Part shown: one piece after another, positions 1 through 12,104 of the stretch
How the letters are laid out: the number at the start of each line of letters is the position of its first letter
How positions within the stretch are numbered: the first letter of the stretch is position 1
DNA from: Selaginella moellendorffii
Taxonomy: Eukaryota > Plantae > Lycopodiophyta
Reading direction: 5' to 3'
Assembly: GCF_000143415.4 (NCBI RefSeq)
Contig: NW_003314566.1
Span: forward strand, 1 to 12,104
DNA length: 12,104 bases
Translations under genes and position numbers: made by a program
The notes under the pieces: generated by a model
Database searches by the model: none
Told to the model about the DNA's origin: nothing
Seen by the model: only the letters and a program-made list of their open reading frames with translations

Positions 1-8
1 GTATTTGA

Positions 9-645
9 GAATTTCATGCACAACCACCTAGTGAGCTAAAAATATTTAACAAATCAAGCATAGAAATGGATGAAATTAGGGAAGTTCAACCACTTTTGAA
101 TGATTATGAAAGATTTTTTGTTAAAAAGATCAAATTAATATTAAGGCAAAAAGTTTCAAAGTAAATACTAAACATTATGTGTTTTTTTTCTTTTTTTGTT
201 ACTTTTAATATACAAACTTCATGCAGGGTTTATTGGGTTTTTAATTCAACCATGTTTTCCCCATAATGTAAATTAGATGAAGTGATCTAGACACTAAGCA
301 ATTTATGCATGAGGTACAAAGTGATCAGCTAATAAGAACAGGTAAAAAATACTTCTTCATTTTACTTTTATTGTTTATTCTACTATTTTATTAAGAAGAA
401 TGGCTTGAAGTCATGCTTGATTTAAGGAGCTATATAGGTTAAAGTTAAGTGATTATATCTATGGGCTGTATGCCATTGGCATTCCAGTAAGTTTTTTTGA
501 GAACATTGTAAGTCAAGGTTATAATAGTGAAGATTTGTTTAAGTTTGAGCTTAGGAAGGTTTTAGAGCTCAACACATATGATAGAGATGCAATGAATATA
601 TGTAGAGTGGAAGAATTTTGTAATTTTGAAGAATTTTGTAGGTAA
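9..645 (+). pseudogene. Exon-like relics of an unidentified AT-rich multi-exon gene
   Basis: Stop-free frames 9-160 (EFHAQPPSELKIFNKSS..LRQKVS) and 421-642 (FKELYRLKLSDYIYGLYAIG..EEFCR) lie in very AT-rich DNA. Each ends at a GTAAA donor, with T-rich intron-like spacers at 161-227 and 342-395. No family recognised. Confidence 0.3.
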
Positions 646-2589
646 AAACTAGTTTTTACTCACTTCTAAATTAATAGTACAAAGAGTGACTCTTGAAAAG
701 TCTCTCTCTTATAAAAGGTAATTGTCTATTAGTGCCACTAATCATGATACTCCTAGTCAAGCATCACTCAAGTGTCATACAAAACTAAGCAAAAAGGTAT
801 AACAAAATTTTAGCACACATCTAACTATAAACCCAGCTCATTAAATGTATATATAGTTAAATATTGAATGACCATTTCTACTATATTGTTAAGCAAAATA
901 TCATAGACAAACTCATTAGTCTTTAATAACATCTAAAGAAAGTGAAGCAAATGGTATAAAAAGTACATTGAGCACTTATTTGATGAAGTTATAGTGCAAT
1001 TTACATTGTAGGATTTGAGAATCATAAAATCAAATATTATGTTTTTTAAAATAATTAACTCAACAACTGTTATAAAGTTTTGTTTTAATTGTGTCATTTG
1101 CACTAGAAAAAGTTCTTGTGCAATATGAAGCAGCATATAGAATATCCTTATAGAATTTTAAAAATTTTCTATAATATATTTATTGAATTAAAATTGTTTG
1201 ATGGTTTGTATGTGCAATTCTGTAACAAAGTGACTGCATTCAAGTTTCAGATTTTATAATTTTATTCATTACTAAAAATCAAGGCATAAACATTTTAAGC
1301 CCCAACTTATAATTGAATGTCATAAATCAACAATTCTCCCAACTTAGGGAATGCCTTTAAATTCAAGCATTTTTAGAAAGTTTGAACTTTCAACTTTCAA
1401 AGGAGATGGCCCTCTTGATAAAAATCAAAATTGACTACTACTTATTCACTGCCAAAGGAGTCTAGGCCAACTAACTTGGAAATGAAAAAACAATTAATGG
1501 AAAATTTTTTATTTAGGATGGTGGAAATTTATGTTAAGAATGAAAAAAAAGAAAATTTATTGCTAGTAAGAATGCTAGAATGGTTTGTTTGAAGTTATAA
1601 AACCTAAAATATTATATTGAAAACATGTGGTTTTATATAGTAAATTGGTTTTTTATGTTGAATTTTTATAAACTCATTTTAATGTGTTTTATGGATTTTA
1701 TCTTCTAGTGTTTCTTTTAAAGGGCCCTTGTATGAAAGAATGCTCATCCACACTTAAAGTCTCATTCATATCTTTTTCAATGAGATTAAAATCGGTCCAA
1801 AATCTTTATGCATAAGTCTAGGCTGACTAAATTGCTTTACAATCCAATGTAAATGTCATAGACTGTATCACCTCATATGTTCATACAAAGCTCTACAACC
1901 ACAATGTAATGGGATGATGGTATATTATAATCAATAACTTGTTAAAACCACTGGGCATGCCACACTAGATCAATGATTTGCAATGCTAAACAAACATTAT
2001 GATCCCAAACCTTTATCCCAACCCACCTCAAAATGCCATATGCATCCATCATTCCCTAGTTGCTTCCTACATATTCCAAAGGCAATTAGCTCCCACAACT
2101 TTGCTGTTATGTCTAGTGGTTGCTTCATAAAAAATACCCCATGCCAACCAACCCCCCTCAAAATATTGTGAAGTTTTGATGCTCTGGTCACAAAGTACAG
2201 ATTGTCACACGAACCAAAGTAACTTCTTCCATTGTCAATCCATTTTTCATGGCAAAGAAAGGAACATCTTTGCTATCTCCACTTGCTTCACTATCATCAC
2301 TAGACTCATTGTCCCAAGTGGTAAGTGCTCTCTTCTCTTCCCGAGGAACCTAAACTAATCCTAGATGTACTTTTACTGTTGTTGATGTTGTCTGCTGCTA
2401 TGGTCTTCTGCCACCACCACTGCTGCTGCTGCTGATCTTTTAATACTGCTGCAGCTGCATGTCAATGCTGCCCAGCCATAAGGACTGCTGCCCCTGCTCC
2501 ATTTGCTCCAAGTCCCACCGCCCACTGTTGGCACTGCCATGGATGGCATTGTTTTGTGCTGAAGTGAGCAAGTGGCAATGCGAGCAGCT

Positions 2590-2598
2590 AAACCCTAA
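2590..2598 (+). promoter_or_regulatory. Telo-box (AAACCCTAA) in a decayed GC-rich stretch
   Basis: Exact AAACCCTAA near (CCA)n/(CTG)n runs at 2410-2433, which look like a deaminated (CCG)n gene 5' region. Confidence 0.35.
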
Positions 2599-4079
2599 GA
2601 TGAATCTGGCTTGTCGCTGTCTACTATGGCATAGTGCTCAGATGCTGAGTTGTCCTAAGTGGTTAGGTATGAAGGGCAACATAAAAAAGAGAGTATATCT
2701 ACTCATATGCTAGATTGCATTTACCTTATTTTTGGTTTGCATAAGCAATACCTAGAATATACTTAGATATTAAATAGTAGAATATCCCATAATATTCATC
2801 TAGAATAATCTTGTCTTTTCCTAAACAGTTAATACTCTAGTTTATAAATTCTCTTGGTGATTATTATTTACACACTTCTGGTCTCGCAGAAGTTTTATTC
2901 TACAGCCATGCTAAAGAATCTACATTAATTCTTGCAAAACATGTTGGGAATTGTGTTGGCTGCCACCACATTTTCTGTCTTGGTAAGGTGGCTTTGATAC
3001 TTTCCAACTTGACTGTGGGTTTTTGTGTGCCTACTTCAAAGATGGATTTTCTAGGTCAAATGTCCAGAAAACCCATGAGAATGCTGGCAAAGTTGCATCA
3101 GAACAGTTATCCTTTGGCAAAGACAAACAAGACAGCATCCTATCAAGGTTCCATTTTAATTTTCAAGCATCTGAGAAAGTTTTTTAGTTTCTGTTAGCTG
3201 CAAGCTGCAAAATTTTAACTTGGAAGTAAGGACTATGTTTTCAAGAACAAAAGCTAGGTTTTTTTTTCTTTGTTTGATGATGTATGGCCTCTTGGCTCAT
3301 TTTCCCCTGGTGGCTGAGTGTTCTTTTGCTCAGGCAATGGTCAATTGAGATCTTTGAGCTCGCCTCCAATGGAACTTTGGACATGGGAGATAATAGTTCT
3401 ATTCTCTGTTCCCTGTGCTCTTTGATCTGGGGCTAAGTTCTCTATACTTTCTTATTGTCAGACCTGGGAGACTGTCACTATGGAGCCAAAAAGCACAGAC
3501 TTTTTTGCAACTTGGATGCTTTAGGCATGAATAGAGCGAGTATGAAGGCTAGATAACTGTGGTTATCCATGCAATGGAAGCTTCCCCATAAGATCACAGA
3601 TGAAGTAATACTTTTGGAGCTCTGAAGTACTTGCTTAGTTTTTCTTTGTTCAGGTGGACTCACATATATAGGTGTTTGGAATTTATCACGGGCTTGCAGT
3701 CATGTGGAAGAACATGCACAAGTGTCATTTACAGCCACAACTTATTACTTGCATTAGTAAGTACATAATATTCTTGAATGGTACCTTCTTTTGCAGGTGA
3801 ACTATGGAATTCATGACAGTTGACCACTGGGATAAAGTGCTGGGTTTCAAAGCCCATAAACTCTGAATAACATATGATATTTCCATGGGGTTCCTTGAAG
3901 GTAGTGAAGAAAGCTGTAAAATTCAGGTTTGTCAGCCTCGAAATGTTGGTAATCTCATTGCAAGCATTAGGTTTAGGGAGACTATATTAATATGGAAAGA
4001 ACGCAGAGTGGTGGTCAAAGGGTACTCTCAAATCTTCTCACACTAAGAACACAAGATAAGCAAAGCTGGGCTTTGAAAA

Positions 4080-4508
4080 TTATGATACCTTTGCATCTTG
4101 GAGTGGATACCTCTCATGGAAGATATAAAAGATGGCAGTGGAATGTAGAGTTTGACTTGAGTCTTGGAAGTATAGTCTTAAGAAGACTGAACTATATCTA
4201 TAGGCTCTTGACATGATCTTCGCGTGGACCATAAGTAGCACAAAGCAGAGTAAAAAGAAATAACGAAAACGAACTTTTATCTCACGCAAACTGGCTTTGA
4301 TCGGTGTAGGAGCTATGACCACACCTGGAGATTCATGTTGGCACAAACTAACCAAGATATGAAAGCCATGCCTCTCGCTTAGGACCTTTGCTGGACTACA
4401 ATAGCTCCTAAACGAAATCGTTGTGTCTGCCTGAGAATACTGACAACCCTGTTGATACTGTCGCCACAGTGCTTTCTCTGGAAAACTTCGAAGACTAATC
4501 ATCGCCAT
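4080..4508 (-). other. Possible 5' exons of an unidentified, probably decayed neighbouring gene
   Basis: An ATG lies 8 nt after the PMT stop. The N-terminus is S/R-rich, and there is a T-rich 57-nt GT..AG segment (4274-4218) and a donor-like AG|GTATCC near 4110. No homology recognised. Confidence 0.25.
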
Positions 4509-4516
4509 ACTCTACC

Positions 4517-6279
4517 TTACACATCGACGATCCAGAACTTCTTAGAGCATATAAGAAGCTGCTCATCTTTTTCAAGAATGCGATGGACTCAGGCCAACGC
4601 ACTACACCGCACGTGAGGAATCTTGAAAGATTGCAAGAGCCTGTGTCATAGTAGCTAGAATCAACTCTCAGAAGTCAAATGAGAAAATTTACATTTGGTC
4701 TCAGCAGCCGATCCATTTCCAGCATTATATCTTCGATCTGGCACCCTTTTCTCCCTGGATAGAGGGACGTCATGCGATATGCGTGCAACAAGTCGTAGCT
4801 CCTCAGGTAGCTCGAAATGCTTTCGCACCTGTGGATGCAAAAAATGAGAAGAAAGCCAAGTGAATATGAGCAAGCCTATGTACCAGGTATGCAAGTTGCC
4901 TACGAGGCCTCGACCATACACGACGTTAAGAGTGTTGCTAGATTCAGTTGGAACCACGTTCATGATCCACACGGGCTTGTTCTGTAGTAACAAGGCAGCA
5001 GCAAAGCCTCCGTAGCCAGCATTCATATCCATAACGTTCCGAATGGAATTTTCGGATACATTAAGCAGCTTCCAATAGTCTCCAACTTTGCCTTCCCAGA
5101 GAGATGTGTCTTCTTTGAAAGAAGATGAGCTGATACCTGTGCAAAAGAAATCCCGTTACCACATACTAGAGTACATAGCAAAGTTACCGAGCTGGTTTGA
5201 GTAAGTTGTAAGCCGCTCCAGCCATGAAGGAACATCGACGAAATTGGCAATCATTGTCCTCAGACAAGGCAATGCAGTCGTCCAATGGCTTGTTCCACGA
5301 GTTGTCTAGAAACTCCTTGCTTTGGTTAGTGCACAGCTTGGACTTGGCGAGCTGACAGGACCTGGCGGTCTTTCTCCAAACCGCAGTCTGGATGTGCCGT
5401 GCGATCACCTTCCAGCAAAGAGATTCTGTAATGTTGGTCAGGATGTTCCAAACTTCAGGGAAATCCTTGTCTTTGCGATAAGCTGGAGGTGCAGAATAGA
5501 TGAGGTCTTAAAATCCAGTCCATTTCCCTGAGCAAAATACCCCCTGCAGATTCACGAGAAAGGAAATTTTTATATCATGTGCGAGATTCCAACTAATGCT
5601 TACCATCTTCGTGCCAATCGACGTGACAGCGGGAACAGTGAACAGCATCGAAGGATCTGGAAGGATACGGCAAGCACTTGGTTCCAAGCGCTGCAACAAG
5701 AGCCGGTACTCCTCGTTCCAGAGCGAACTGGATCTGATTCTCGTGCGAGTCAAGCGGCACGAACGACATGGTCTGGATGTCGAGGTTGAAGAGATAAGCT
5801 GCAAAGCTTGCAACTCTTCAGCCAATGTCCAAACCTCGAGCCACTCCAGCAGTCTGTAAATCTCCCTTCCAATCCGTGGTCATGTTTCCTAGCCTGTCTA
5901 CACGAAGTTGATGGATCAATGGATCAAAAGAGAGAAGAAAAGTGTTACCTCTGGATGTACTCAGGAGCTCCATGCTTGAAATGTGTCCCTCCTCCCGGAA
6001 ACCACATGGAGCCTTTAATGTGGACCCAGTTCTGGCCACCTTTCACTTTGGCTAGCTGGGTGTGGTTTACGTTGCTCCTCCACATATGGGGCCACCCGAT
6101 GGGAAGTTTGTTGGACTTTGGTGAAGGAATAAGGCAGAAAGGATGCTGGTTTGGTGGGGGTATTGTCGCTCCAACTGCTCCCTTCTCAAGAGATTGAGCT
6201 TGTTGGAGATGGAAGCAATGTAGTTTGCATGGTGGCATGGGATGTAGAGGTTGACTCCATCAGAATGTTGAAATAGCAT
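4517..6279 (-). pseudogene. Pseudogene of a putative SAM-dependent methyltransferase, PMT6/PMT7-like (DUF248/Methyltransf_29 family)
   Basis: Exons are about 6279-5949, 5893-5604, 5543-5188, 5136-4884, 4828-4693 and 4640-4517, separated by GT-AG introns of 55, 60, 51, 55 and 52 nt. Motifs: [142 protein letters not shown]. Lesions: TGA at 5818-20, frameshifts near 6158, 5502 and 5249, and stops plus a deletion in the last exon. The N-terminal membrane anchor is not recognisable. Confidence 0.93.
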
Positions 6280-8081
6280 TTGGCTCCATTTTGAGAGTTG
6301 GTTCTAGTGTTGGGATGATGGATGCTTTAGCACTAATTTAATGTTGCTCCATACTCTTGCTCCTCTGCTTTTTGGGTTGTATGTTTGGGAGTCATTATGT
6401 GCTTTAATTCCTTAGCTAGGAGTTTGATTTCATCCCTTTATTCAGTAAGACAAATTTTTGCTCCATTAGCTTTGGCCCATGTGTCCAAGGGATAAAGTGG
6501 TAAAACACCAAAGGATAAAGGGTGAAAACTATATGCACCTACATATCCCTTGAGCTTCCTAATATACTTGGATAGTTGTATGTTTGAAGCTTGGCTTTTT
6601 GAGTTGTAAAACACACAAATTGCCGTATTGTACTTTAAAGTGCCCATCCATGATTGTTGCGAATGTGACTACAAGTATTAAATCCTTACTACCATGATAG
6701 TAAGAGGTTGGTATTGCTAGATCCTTTTTTAGTTTCCACCCAAGCTAGTTGAGAAATTGGTCATCATATATATACTTATGCTGGATAAACATAAGGTAGG
6801 AACTCCTATGTGTTTCTTGCTAAGCATACTCAGTCCGGTAAGAGAAACTCATATGTTAACTTGCATTTGTTAATGTTAGGACCCCTACAATATTGAGCTT
6901 GCTTCCTCAATATTTGCCAAATGATAATTTATCGTGTCTACCAAACACCTTTGCTATCATGCACTTTGTGTTAGTCCCATTTTGTCCTAATTACTATTTA
7001 TGGAAAGTGTCTAGATTTGTTAATTTGGCATATCTACAAAATGTGGTGTTAATCTCGTATCCAAATTCACAATCTAACATCATTCCATATTTAGTAAGTT
7101 TCAAGCTTGTTCCAGAGACTAACTCCAGAGTGATTAAGAGTGAAAAGCCAAAGCATATGTTCCTCAAGGCAGGGGGCTATAGGGGTTTCAAATGTATAAT
7201 AGAGATAGTGGGTAGGTCGGGTATGGCTGACCAACTTGTAATATAATCTAGCTCTTGCTTGCGTGCCTGTCTTTATTTTATATTTGGCTTGGGTTTAAGT
7301 CTAAGTTCCACACCATACTTGCTAGTAGTGGAGTACCCATATCCTCACATTAGGCCACCAATATGCTAAAATAATGCTAAACTCTGTTTAACTCTGTTTT
7401 GCATGTTGATCCTAGCATTGGAATGCTAGATGCTCTTGGACTATTCCAAGTCGGTATGTACTTTTGTCCCTTCACTCCTTAGGCTGTATACTTAGAAGTT
7501 ATTATGTGCTCCAATGCCGTTGCTCTTTGGCTCCATGCTTGGGAGTTTAGCTTTATTTCTTCATTCAGTGGCCCAAGGCTCTGAAACTCGAGTTTTGCTC
7601 CACTGTTCTTGGACACGTGACTGTAAGCCACAAATTTTTCCTTTCCAATTTGCCAGCTTACCTTGTCTATCCGTCCAACACTGCCTTGGCTTTTGCTAAG
7701 TTCCCTCGCCAAGGTTCCCGCCTATGGTACCAGCTCCTATTTGGTCCTACTTGGTTTCAGCTACTCACTGCACGAGCAACGGACTGTTAGCCATCCATCC
7801 ACGGATTCCCAATCTCTCCCAATCCCCCTCCCCGGGTTAGACTGGACTTAAGGTTCGGTTACATTCCCCGCAAGCACAAGTAGCCAAGCACACCAAGCTT
7901 CCAGGTTCCTAACATCCCTTGGTACCACAAGACTTGATCATGGGACCCTCTAAATCCCAAGTCTTGGGTGCAACACTTGCTTTGGTACGCCGGAGCGAAA
8001 CACCGTGGCCTAACGGCCCGGTATGGGTACCTCTACCCCCCCACTTCCATCCTGAAGGGAAGGTCCAAGCCCCTAGAAAGG

Positions 8082-8276
8082 TCTAAACAACCAAAGGGAA
8101 CGATTCGAGAGACAATCCATAGGGGTTCAAATATAGAGGGAAAGGGCCCATGAACAAGAGTGCACCCCCTTTTCCAATTAGTTAAGGGTCTTGGGATACT
8201 TGGGGTTAAGCGTCTTTGGGTTTGAATAGTATTGGGCTGGGTGACCTCCCGGGAAGTCCAAATTCAGGAGCTTACA
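8082..8276 (+). repeat. Cassandra 5' LTR
   Basis: TCTAAACAACC...GGAGCTTACA; direct repeat of 8482-8676 at an offset of exactly 400 nt; the 5' TG is mutated to TC. Confidence 0.93.
8205..8259 (+). promoter_or_regulatory. 5S rRNA-derived Pol III internal control region (A-box/IE/C-box) in the 5' LTR
   Basis: GTTAAGCGTCTTTGGGTTTGAATAGTATTGGGCTGGGTGACCTCCCGGGAAGTCC aligns without gaps to the plant 5S segment GTTAAGCGTGCTTGGGCGAGAGTAGTACTAGGATGGGTGACCTCCTGGGAAGTCC, recalled from memory (about 45/55). Confidence 0.9.
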
Positions 8277-8278
8277 TT

Positions 8279-8289
8279 TGGTATCAGAG
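8279..8289 (+). other. Primer binding site complementary to the 3' end of initiator tRNA-Met
   Basis: TGGTATCAGAG, 2 nt after the CA of the 5' LTR; the canonical plant PBS is TGGTATCAGAGC. Confidence 0.93.
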
Positions 8290-8481
8290 GGGTCTTGGGT
8301 TCGACTCTATTGGTTGGCTAGGGGAATCACACCACATGTTGATTGACATCTGGCTAGTCCAATTTGCTCCCGCTGGGCTCGACCCGAGGGGTAGGGTGTC
8401 AAGAGAGCGGGGCTCTCAGGAGAGCTGCGGCTCTCAGCTTCCATTCACGAGGGCGTGAACTTGCAGGGAAGCATGGTGGAT

Positions 8482-8676
8482 TGTAAGCAACCAAAGGGAA
8501 CGATTTGAGAGACGATCCCTAAGGGTTCAAATATAGAGGGAAAGAGCCTATGAACAAGAGTGCACCCCCTTTTCCAATTGGTTAAGGGTCTTGGGATACT
8601 TGGGGTTAAGCGTCTTTGGGTTTGAATAGTACTGGGCTGGGTGACCTCCCGGGAAGTCCAAATTCAGGAGCTTACA
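8482..8676 (+). repeat. Cassandra 3' LTR
   Basis: TGTAAGC...GCTTACA, a perfect 7-bp terminal inverted repeat. Confidence 0.95.
8605..8659 (+). promoter_or_regulatory. 5S rRNA-derived Pol III internal control region in the 3' LTR
   Basis: Second copy, about 46/55 matches to the recalled plant 5S segment; retains TAGTACT. Confidence 0.9.
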
Positions 8677-8943
8677 GAAGGGCGAGGACCAATGAGCCGC
8701 ATGGTACTCAAATGGGGCACCACTCCACATGAGTCGGGAGCACTGCAATCGGTTTCCCTTTCGGGAGTGGGAGCTACTCTTGAGCACTTCCTTGGATGGC
8801 CCCTTTGGCACCAACCAAGTCCATGATCACTCCCACCCAAGGCCCCTCAGTCCCAGTCCCAACCTCAAGTCAGTTTGGAAGCCCCACTTGAGAGTTCCTT
8901 CAAAATTGGTTCCTCCCTATTATACTTTTGGAACCCCCTGCAG

Positions 8944-8963
8944 CCCCCCCCCCCCCCCCCCCC
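8944..8963. repeat. C20 homopolymer (G20 on the retrotransposon sense strand)
   Basis: Direct count of 20 consecutive C; a C5 run lies nearby at 8934-8938. Confidence 0.95.
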
Positions 8964-9025
8964 TGGGAGACGCACGCTTTGGGCTTTCACCCCTTGACCC
9001 GTATTAGTATTTGGACTTAGTCTTT

Positions 9026-9283
9026 GGCTCGATCTCGGACCCGATCTCGGATCCGACTTCGGATTCGGTCTCAGACTCGATCCCGGACTCGATCTTGAAA
9101 CCGACCTCGGACTTGGTCTCGGACCCGATTTCGGATCTCAGACTCCGTCTCAAACTCGGTCTCGAACTCGGTTTCGAACTCGTTCTTGAACTCGGTCTCT
9201 GAGTCGGCCTCGGACTCGATTCCAGACTTTATCTCAAACTCGGTCTTAGAGTCGGTTTTGGACTCGATCTTAGACTCAGTCTT
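9026..9283. repeat. Degenerate 12-bp (2x6) tandem array, consensus about CTCGGACTCGRT, roughly 21 units
   Basis: ..ctcggacccgat ctcggatccgac ttcggattcggt ctcagactcgat cccggactcgat.. This array explains the low-complexity ORFs 9011..9202 and 9071..9313. Confidence 0.9.
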
Positions 9284-9406
9284 ATCTGATGAACTCTTTA
9301 TCATTTTGGTCATGCTTTCGGGGATCCTTTAGCCTACGACACCTCGGCGAGTTGGTTCCTTACAACTCCACCACCCATAGAAGAAGTTCGATGCCCACAT
9401 CGAATG

Positions 9407-9429
9407 TTTATTTTTATTTTTATTTTTTA
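9407..9429 (-). terminator. (TAAAAA)n microsatellite giving tandem AATAAA motifs; candidate polyadenylation signal for minus-strand transcripts
   Basis: The minus strand reads ATAAAAAATAAAAATAAAAATAAA, downstream of the pol stop. Confidence 0.35.
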
Positions 9430-9821
9430 TCCTACGACTTGTTAACCATGTCTCCGGGGGCATCCCCCCACTTAGCGGTGTGCCTGAGTTAGCCTCCCCG
9501 GCCAAAAGCCCATGACAACAGAATATAGGTGTCCCTATACTCTTCACCTCACCACGCCCTAGTATAGGGTCGGAACTTGAACCCAGCCTTGCTTTATTAG
9601 GGGGTTGGGACTCGAACCCAACCTCTGTAGAATATGTCTACGGATTCGACATCCCTGCAGGGAGTCGGGCGTAGTTCCCTACGCCTGGTCGACCTAGCTA
9701 ACCCATGCTAATTAGCTTACCTTCGGCGCGCCTTCGGGTCCCAACATATGCCATTGCTCAACTTCTCAAATTGATACTTTTAATTGAATTTTGCATAAGT
9801 ACATAGAGTTCTACCTTGCAG

Positions 9822-9983
9822 AAATTCCTCTACTAGATCTCGCGCATTCGCTAGGTTCTCCTCCGATTCCCATGTTACTTCGTAGTGTGGAAATCCTTTC
9901 CACTTCACATGAAACTCTCTCACCTCGCATCCTTGTCGCTTGCTCTTGCGCACATTGAGAATGGCCTCGACTTCGTATTCCTC
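9822..9983 (-). other. Chromodomain at the integrase C-terminus (group I type, aromatic cage retained)
   Basis: EEYEVEAILNVRKSKRQGCEVREFHVKWKGFPHYEVTWESEENLANARDLVEEF contains the Y-x-V-E-x-I, V-K-W-K-G-F and T-W-E-x-x-E-N-L chromodomain signatures. Confidence 0.93.
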
Positions 9984-10161
9984 TACCCCTTGGATAACCT
10001 CATGTAAAGGTCTCACTTGGTCCTTGCAAAGCGGATCCTCAAAATACGGCTTGAGTAAGTTCACATGGAACACGGGATGCATCTTCCCCATCTCTCGAGG
10101 AAGTCGGAGATGGTAAGCCACTTTACTGATTCGAGCCTCAATCTCGTAAGGCCCCGCGAAT

Positions 10162-10213
10162 CTGCTTAAGGAACTCAAGATCAATTCATTTATAGGAATA
10201 CATGCATTTTTAC
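10162..10213 (-). other. Spliceosomal-type intron 2 (52 nt) just before the integrase GPY motif
   Basis: AAG TTG ACC CAA AG|GTAAAAATGCATGTATTCCTATAAATGAATTGATCTTGAGTTCCTTAAGCAG|A TTC GCG GGG CCT TAC. It is an AT-rich GT..CAG insert. Excision restores K-L-T-Q-R-F-A-G-P-Y (typical gypsy KLxPRFxGPY). Confidence 0.88.
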
Positions 10214-10631
10214 CTTTGGGTCAACTTCTAGCTGATCCCACTTGGTAGCCTGAGGTTCTTGGTGTTCAGCCACACCTTCTCCCCAGCTTGGAACTCTACA
10301 TCCTGGCACTTCTGATTTGCGTACTTAGTTTGCCTTTGTTGAGCTCGTTCCAAGGAATCCCTCACTAGATTCCAAATGTTGAGTCTTTCCGCCGTGAATG
10401 CCTCCACTGCGGGTAACTCTCCATGATACTTGGCCACGCCGAGTTCCACAAGATCTTCAATAGCTCGCCCATTGATGACTTCCCATGGACTCACCCCGAT
10501 GCTCGAATGTGGTGAGTTGTTATAACACATTTCCGCAAGGCCCAAATGACTTACCCAATCGGTCTGGTCTCCGGAGACATAGCATCGCAAATAATCCTCC
10601 AGCTGCCTATTCACCCTTTCCGTTTGTCCAT

Positions 10632-10678
10632 CTGTCAAGAAGTGTTAGTGCCATCAATCTTGACTTAATACCCATTAC
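10632..10678 (-). other. Spliceosomal-type intron 1 (47 nt) within the integrase catalytic core
   Basis: CAG ACA G|GTAATGGGTATTAAGTCAAGATTGATGGCACTAACACTTCTTGACAG|AT GGA CAA ACG GAA. It has a GT donor, a CACTAAC branch-point consensus, a short pyrimidine tract and a CAG acceptor. Excision restores H-P-Q-T-D-G-Q-T-E. Confidence 0.88.
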
Positions 10679-11426
10679 CTGTCTGTGGGTGATAGGCTGT
10701 GCTGAATTTCAACTTGGTGCGATACTGTTTTAGGAGTGTCCTCCAGAACCTACTAGTGAAGATCTTATCTCGATCTGAGATAATCTCTTCCGGCCTTCCC
10801 CGCACTCGAACCACTTGTTCGAAAAATAGCTTCGCCACACCTTCCGCATCCACTTCCGTTGTGATGGGTATGAAATGTGCCATCTTCGAAAATCGATCCA
10901 CCACCACGAATATCGCATCGAACCCCTTGCTTGGGGGAAGTCCCGTGATGAAGTCCATCGTAAGACATTTCCACGGACGATCTAGAATTGGGGTGCTTTG
11001 TAACAAGCCCCCACTAGCCTTAGTCACGGCTTTGACTTACTGACATGTTGGACATGTCTTTACATAGTCTTGGACATCCTTAGCCATATCTGGTCAGTGG
11101 TACTTCCTCTTGAGTAAGCCCATTGTCTTGGGCACTCTGCCGTGTCCCGCAAGAGGTCTGTCATAACACTCTTCTAAGGCTACCTTCCTTAGTTCCCCTT
11201 CTGGAACATACACCCTTGTTTGCTTGTAATATATGAGTCCGTTGCGTTTTGCATAGCCCGTTTTCTCTTCTGATGGCAACTCACCTTTCTGGTGAGCTTC
11301 CCGTGCCTCTAGATTCCTCAGCAACACTTCTTGTGCTAGACCATCGTTCTCGTATGCGGTCCGCACATCATCCCAAAAGGTTGCTGTCGCGCTAGATATC
11401 GCCAATTTCAAGCTTGCTTTTCGACT

Positions 11427-11790
11427 TAGCGCATCTGCCACGATGTTGCTCTTCCCAGGCTTGTACAAAATCTCGCAATCAAACTCGGCCAAAGCATTGG
11501 CCCACCGACCTTGTTTTCCCCTCAGGTCGGGCTGTGACAAGAAGTGTTTCGTTGCCACATTGTCCGTGTAAACCTTGAAGTGTCTCCCAAGGTAGTGTCG
11601 CCATTCCTTGAGCGCCTTGACCACCGCAAACAATTCCTTCTCATGGGTAGGTCACTTCCGTTGAGCCTTGTCCAACTTCTTTGAGAAGAACACTACTGGA
11701 TGGTTGTCTTGCTTCAAAATTGCGCCCAACGCAAAGTCTGAAGCATCCGTTTCTACCTCAAAGTCTTTACCAAAGTTTGGTAATGCCAAC
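11427..11790 (-). pseudogene. RNase H domain of gypsy pol (interrupted by TGA at 11652-11654)
   Basis: LPNFGKDFEVETDASDFALGAILKQ..FFSKKL..*PTHEKELFAVVKALKEWRHYLG..VYTDN..YKPGKSNIVADALSR. Boundaries are approximate. Confidence 0.9.
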
Positions 11791-12104
11791 ACGGGAGCCT
11801 TCCTCAACTTCCCCTTGAGGTGGACGAATGTTGCCTCGCATTCTGCTGTCCATACCATCTTCCCTTTTCCCATTTGGTCCGTTCGAATAGTGTTTGATAA
11901 ACTTTCGATAGTAGTTGCATAGCCCCAGGAATGCCCTTAACTCGTGTACATTCGATGGTCACTCCCAATCCTAGATCGCTTGGACCTTCTTAGGGTCCAC
12001 CTTGAGCCCGTCCTTGCCCACCACATGCCCAAGAAACTTTACCTTTTGCTGAGCAAAGTCACATTTGCTCTCTTTAGCATACAGCTGGTGTCCCTTAGTT
12101 CTCA

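Follow-up and report, generated by a model that had tools for sequence, protein, structure and literature searches.

LTR retrotransposons are a textbook example of sequences that lose introns. A December 2025 review describes plant LTR elements as generally free of introns and, in its searchable text, gives Ogre and EVADE as exceptions (PMC12786077). Ogre, from the Tat clade of Ty3/gypsy, carries one intron of ~274 bp between GAG-PROT and RT (PMC6317226, PMC4408406, PMC2533021). For BARE1, only uncapped, unspliced and non-polyadenylated RNA is reported in particles, with a separate translated pool (PMC3735527), and for EVADE the spliced RNA is favoured on polysomes (PMC5580714). Penelope-like elements keep introns through retrotransposition, and one such element of Selaginella has an inferred intron (PMC8557442); these are non-LTR elements that use other enzymes and another mechanism.

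SM1-Galahad is a Galadriel-clade chromovirus of Selaginella moellendorffii described by Novikov et al. in 2012 (PMC3350952). According to the family description in that paper, it comprises hundreds of copies of ~95% identity with variable poly-G tracts and zero intact copies. Its LTRs measure 1,076/1,146 bp with poly-G stretches of 11-25 nt, and its consensus pol is divided into a 3,885-bp open reading frame (ORF) and ORFs of 316 bp and 309 bp, the last of which contains the chromodomain (PMC3350952). By contrast, SM2-Galahad is described as intact, with one uninterrupted 4,731-bp ORF, hundreds of copies and an LTR of 919 bp (PMC3350952). Here we report two candidate introns inside the integrase of an element that very likely belongs to SM1-Galahad.

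A decayed chromovirus copy

The window analysed is a stretch of 12,104 nt from S. moellendorffii (GCF_000143415.4, contig NW_003314566.1, positions 1-12,104), with the element on its minus strand. On it lies a Ty3/gypsy chromovirus, represented by its 3' half: the last part of RT, then RNase H, integrase, SH3/GPY-F and chromodomain. Pfam domains in pol are RT_RNaseH, Integrase_H2C2 (weak, 9e-4), rve, SH3_Tf2-1 (5.6e-15) and Chromo (7.2e-16). The assignment to Ty3/gypsy chromoviruses follows from the RT-RNase H-integrase order, the C-terminal chromodomain, a TG..CA LTR and a polypurine tract, all of which are present.

Along the minus strand, pol falls into three putative exons separated by two inserts, which were delimited by their GT..AG ends and by homologue alignment. 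Exon 1 extends to the window edge (10679-12104) and, in a domain search, contains the RT end, RNase H, the integrase zinc finger and the rve core, with both catalytic D residues (codons at 10955 and 10775). Insert 1 (47 nt, 10632-10678) separates it from exon 2 (418 nt, 10214-10631; homologue alignment), which carries the catalytic E (codon 10620) and the remainder of the integrase core. Insert 2 (52 nt, 10162-10213) is followed by exon 3 (9780-10161), with SH3_Tf2-1 and the chromodomain. A polypurine tract (9365-9376, minus strand) lies directly before the 3' LTR (7622-9364, minus strand), which begins TGT and ends ACA, measures ~1,143 bp without a nested element and contains a 20-nt poly-G tract.

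The window copy is dead, because pol contains four in-frame stops (three in exon 1 and one in exon 2) and a frame change near 11883. Compared with the family over 9400-12104 in one DNA run, 195 of 214 listed places are transitions and the stops read TGA, TAG or TAA, as expected from methylation-driven decay.

Two inserts with splice signals

Insert 1 starts with GTAATG, ends with TTGACAG and interrupts the frame in phase 1; insert 2 starts with GTAAAA, ends with AAGCAG and interrupts it in phase 2. The original prediction, made from the letters of the window, had picked out two GT..AG-bounded inserts, 47 and 52 nt long, that are AT-richer than their surroundings, and the sequence bears this out: GC is 0.38 and 0.31 in the inserts and 0.47-0.50 in the flanking pol. 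Neither length is divisible by 3. In simulations of random inserts of equal size and composition, GT..AG ends arose by chance in 0.5% of cases for one insert and in ~3e-5 for both. Insert 1 has a branch-point match, CACTAAC, 17 nt before its 3' end. The corresponding area of insert 2 reads TTGAT in the window copy and CTAAT in a loose-end row of 14 other contigs, which differs from the window copy at 4 of 30 insert-2 positions in a by-eye comparison.

Five introns were located in a neighbouring host gene, PMT7, with lengths of 51, 52, 55, 55 and 60 nt and GC of 0.35-0.40. The predicted similarity in size to host introns is thus upheld (47 and 52 nt versus 51-60 nt). A point against this likeness is that the inserts have somewhat less T (0.30 and 0.35) than four of the five host introns (0.33-0.42). 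Measured against the U1 consensus, the donor of insert 1 agrees at 7/9 positions and that of insert 2 at 6/9, and all five host introns score 6/9. With GT..AG ends, frame-restoring excision, a branch-point match and host-like size and composition, both inserts have the appearance of U2-type introns. The PMT7-like methyltransferase gene itself (4520-6300, minus strand; five introns of 51-60 nt) may be a pseudogene, because its frame is shifted at several places relative to the protein of S. moellendorffii.

At the boundaries, GACAG occurs at both ends of insert 1, and AG/GT at both ends of insert 2 when the family base G opens exon 3. Introner-like, transposon-derived introns would combine a boundary duplication with near-identical copies at unrelated sites; the boundary repeats at these two sites are GACAG (insert 1) and AG/AGGT (insert 2). 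As a separate observation, a perfect 7-bp inverted repeat in insert 1, GTCAAGA/TCTTGAC, surrounds the branch point and has its end at the acceptor (10632-10664, minus strand); compared with shuffled sequences it lacks significance (z -1.3). We dropped hairpins that cover the 3' splice sites (z -2.2) as a candidate feature, as 2 of the 20 controls placed along pol reached this value and shifted windows over the inserts gave -0.1 and 0.2.

Position within the integrase and effect on the protein

Using queries with X at the break, homologues run ungapped across junction 1 (HPQT-D-GQTER) in 41/41 cases and across junction 2 (KLxx-x-FxGPY) in 36/40, in agreement with the claim that excision restores two gypsy motifs. 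Insert 1 follows the second catalytic D and precedes the catalytic E, so that the triad is split into D,D and E; when the insert is left out of the count, the E falls at D(35)E spacing. Insert 2 lies inside the KLxxRFxGPY motif (SH3/GPY-F), before the chromodomain. Both inserts are within integrase, a location distinct from that of the single Ogre intron between GAG-PROT and RT.

Translation with insert 1 retained yields four further residues, GNGY, and then a stop, which removes the catalytic E; unspliced RNA would encode no active integrase, as the original prediction held. With insert 2 retained, an in-frame stop follows immediately, at a point where the core is otherwise complete and the chromodomain still lies ahead. 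Of the two RNA junctions proposed earlier, CAGACAG/ATGGAC stands, and CCCAAAG/ATTCGC has to be corrected to CCCAAAG/GTTCGC, since the family base at 10161 is G.

Identity of the element

The neighbouring PMT7 shares 95% identity with the PMT7 protein of S. moellendorffii, and the guess of a lycophyte host was right. The window element resembles SM1-Galahad in host, LTR length (~1,143 versus 1,076/1,146 bp), poly-G tract (20 versus 11-25 nt), three-ORF pol and the position of the chromodomain in the last ORF. Its two short ORFs, counted from ATG, measure 318 and 309 bp versus the published 316 and 309 bp, the 309-bp ORF in exon 3 matching published ORF3. The SM1 main ORF plus exons 2 and 3 amounts to 4,671 bp, versus 4,731 bp for SM2-Galahad. 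The element is therefore very likely SM1-Galahad, an identity drawn from these features (host, LTR, poly-G and ORFs) and not from sequence alignment to the consensus.

The SM1-Galahad paper reports broken ORFs and no intact copies; its searchable text has 0 matches to 'intron' or 'splic', and its supplement text has no match to the family name or motifs (PMC3350952). The earlier caveat that the feature might already have been noted in chromoviruses of non-seed plants applies to the family, which had been described, but not to introns, on which the text of that paper is silent. In openly searchable full text, no report of introns was found for the integrase of any LTR element or for SM1-Galahad. 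Our verdict is that the family is known and that one of its features, the candidate introns in its integrase, went unrecognised.

SM2-Galahad is the closest sister family and has the same domains, including CHD_I, but it differs in its single uninterrupted ORF of 4,731 bp (PMC3350952). Because this ORF is uninterrupted, the inserts were either gained in the SM1 line or kept only by it. The sister family also gives rise to the main rival explanation, which we consider unlikely: SM1-Galahad may be non-autonomous, its inserts being either fixed lesions or relics of introns whose splicing has ceased, and its integrase being borrowed from SM2-Galahad. The absence of any intact SM1-Galahad copy in the published description, beside hundreds of copies of an intact, single-ORF SM2-Galahad, fits this explanation (PMC3350952), and so does the precedent of BARE2, which borrows Gag from BARE1 (PMC3735527). 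Borrowing would also account for absent intron-less copies with no RNA sorting mechanism. It leaves unexplained, however, why both separate lesions should have GT..AG ends (3e-5) and branch-point matches. Moreover, exons 2 and 3 are still in register with homologues, exon 2 is open in the family, and the LTRs differ in size between SM1 (1,076/1,146 bp) and SM2 (919 bp) (PMC3350952).

Both inserts are fixed in the family

To survey the family, contigs of one S. moellendorffii DNA run were aligned to a 2.7-kb stretch, for which summed contig depth is not equivalent to copy number. A total of 29,489 contigs fitted this stretch, with 5,717, 10,179, 11,003 and 2,590 in the identity classes of 99+, 95-99, 90-95 and <90%, respectively. 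Depth in the bins containing the inserts was 0.91 and 0.94 of that in neighbouring bins, although the inserts take up 46% and 57% of the bins in question. Of 45 joints, the 15 with the strongest support include no skip of 47 or 52 nt at the insert sites, and the largest joint reached 0.03% of local depth. A 51-nt skip at another place was listed, so skips of insert size are detectable. Contigs diverged by ~13-15% span the inserts with 0-1 gaps.

The DNA depth and the joints place both inserts family-wide, and the published SM1-Galahad consensus is broken likewise; its division into three ORFs is independent evidence that the breaks belong to the family. The concern that the inserts might be private to this dead copy is thereby answered. 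The family frame is open at no fewer than three of the four stops of the window copy (10229, 11094 and 11652; 40 of 215 rows), including the stop in exon 2. The first base of exon 3 (10161) is G in the family, at 770,415 of 775,434 summed depth, and A in the window copy only.

Single intron-less copies are possible, as the joint evidence covers the best 15 of 45 and contigs drop rare variants. This bears on an alternative that we regard as improbable, in which the introns are spliced and rare copies with one intron or none are either the active masters or purged as too active, and mobilise the intron-bearing majority. Such copies would accord with the textbook expectation of intron loss through an RNA cycle (PMC12786077). 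Yet they could stand at no more than about single-copy depth in the DNA run, the 2012 survey describes no intact copy (PMC3350952), and an intron-less master would produce intron-less daughters.

Fixation could also have come about if one landed copy gained the inserts and was then multiplied as DNA, by segmental or tandem duplication or gene conversion, and so escaped any purge through RNA. No special RNA biology would be needed, and the window, which includes only one LTR, does not span both ends at which a target-site duplication would show. We nevertheless hold this to be very unlikely: the family has hundreds of ~95% identical copies with variable poly-G tracts (PMC3350952), contigs are spread over all identity classes with the diverged ones carrying the inserts, and a dead copy would still have had to acquire two inserts that can be spliced. 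Both of these alternatives fit worse than a non-autonomous family with borrowed integrase.

Transcripts and relatives

Three raw RNA runs returned 9, 3 and 0 reads (9.2 million records each, ~12% of a run) with no joint listed, and these 12 reads are too few to speak for or against splicing. A search across sequencing runs listed no RNA run with the sequence, a result that is likewise neutral. In a protein search, the best of 41 longer matches reached 47% identity and none was a family member, nor was any of 13 near-length candidates. Among 150 protein representatives (best identity 59%, no family member), 103 continue as DGQxE past junction 1, and none of the remaining 47 has a clear intron-type ending. 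A metagenome scan by protein gave no match. Six metagenome matches to a position-specific intron pattern were discarded as chance, 0 of 6 having gypsy or window similarity. An Atlas search returned generic chromodomain/SH3 clusters only, and the proteins and metagenomes searched contained neither a spliced product nor an intron-bearing relative.

A proposed role for splicing

We consider it reasonably probable that the inserts are genuine spliceosomal introns, with spliced RNA giving integrase and unspliced RNA being packaged. Because two independent, frame-breaking and canonical inserts lie in an essential domain, selection for their removal by splicing is suggested. On the favoured reading, unspliced RNA would be translated into Gag-Pol with RT and lacking active integrase, while spliced mRNA would supply the whole integrase with its chromodomain. 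A separate unspliced pool would be packaged and reverse-transcribed. The spliced RNA would be only 99 nt shorter and would still have every known signal for packaging and priming, and copying it would wipe out the introns within one cycle. Since no intron-less copy was seen among the best 15 of 45 joints, it is probably the unspliced RNA that is copied. A route of the BARE1 type, in which the packaged RNA is uncapped and unspliced, might achieve this; in the sequence itself, no mechanism was found that would exclude spliced RNA from particles. Such a dosing of integrase may be an adaptation that regulates integration, or it may be a passenger state that the element tolerates.

The closest working analogue is Ogre, in which the intron is likewise kept in genomic copies and splicing in a subset of transcripts completes the polyprotein (PMC4408406, PMC2533021). 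It differs in having one ~274 bp intron before RT, as opposed to two host-sized introns of ~50 nt in integrase, one of them within D,D(35)E. Splicing is documented for Ogre, whereas the intron candidates described here are known from DNA; RT would here come from unspliced RNA, leaving integrase and chromodomain as the parts that need splicing. The contrast with Ogre drawn in the original prediction holds for position only, as a whole polyprotein requires splicing in Ogre as well. Taken together, the interpretation given in the original prediction is partly supported. The Ty1/copia elements BARE1 and EVADE share a facultative intron in an LTR element, and in BARE1 the packaged pool is unspliced (PMC3735527, PMC5580714). 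In those elements splicing shortens the ORF to yield Gag, whereas here it would complete the ORF.

A more elaborate version is possible but doubtful. In it, two ordinary spliceosomal introns gained in the SM1-Galahad integrase would form a three-way switch. RNA with neither intron removed would serve as genome and as template for Pol without integrase activity. Removal of intron 1 only would give a complete catalytic core without chromodomain, because intron 2, left in place, would end translation immediately, and removal of both would give an integrase targeted to chromatin. The frequency and the location of insertion would then both be under the control of host splicing, with spliced RNA barred almost perfectly from particles.

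If the favoured reading holds, a family of hundreds of copies that retains two 50-nt integrase introns must sort RNAs that differ in length by 99 nt, and it becomes testable how RNA for packaging is distinguished from RNA for translation, a long-standing question. The published oddity of a high-copy family without an intact copy would be explained, and the intron gain would be datable, with the intron-less sister family as outgroup. Screens based on ORFs will label families of this kind as dead or chromodomain-less, which calls for caution.

Other features of the 3' LTR

The element nested in the 3' LTR (8082-8676, plus strand) is TRIM-like and has no part in the intron finding. It has two 195-bp LTRs that are 95% alike, an internal region of ~205 bp, a PBS (TGGTATCAGAG) at 8279 and flanks of AAAGG/GAAGG. 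The LTR also contains a degenerate 12-nt tandem array (9013-9294), which reads on the minus strand as an 85-aa open frame rich in E, T, D and S.
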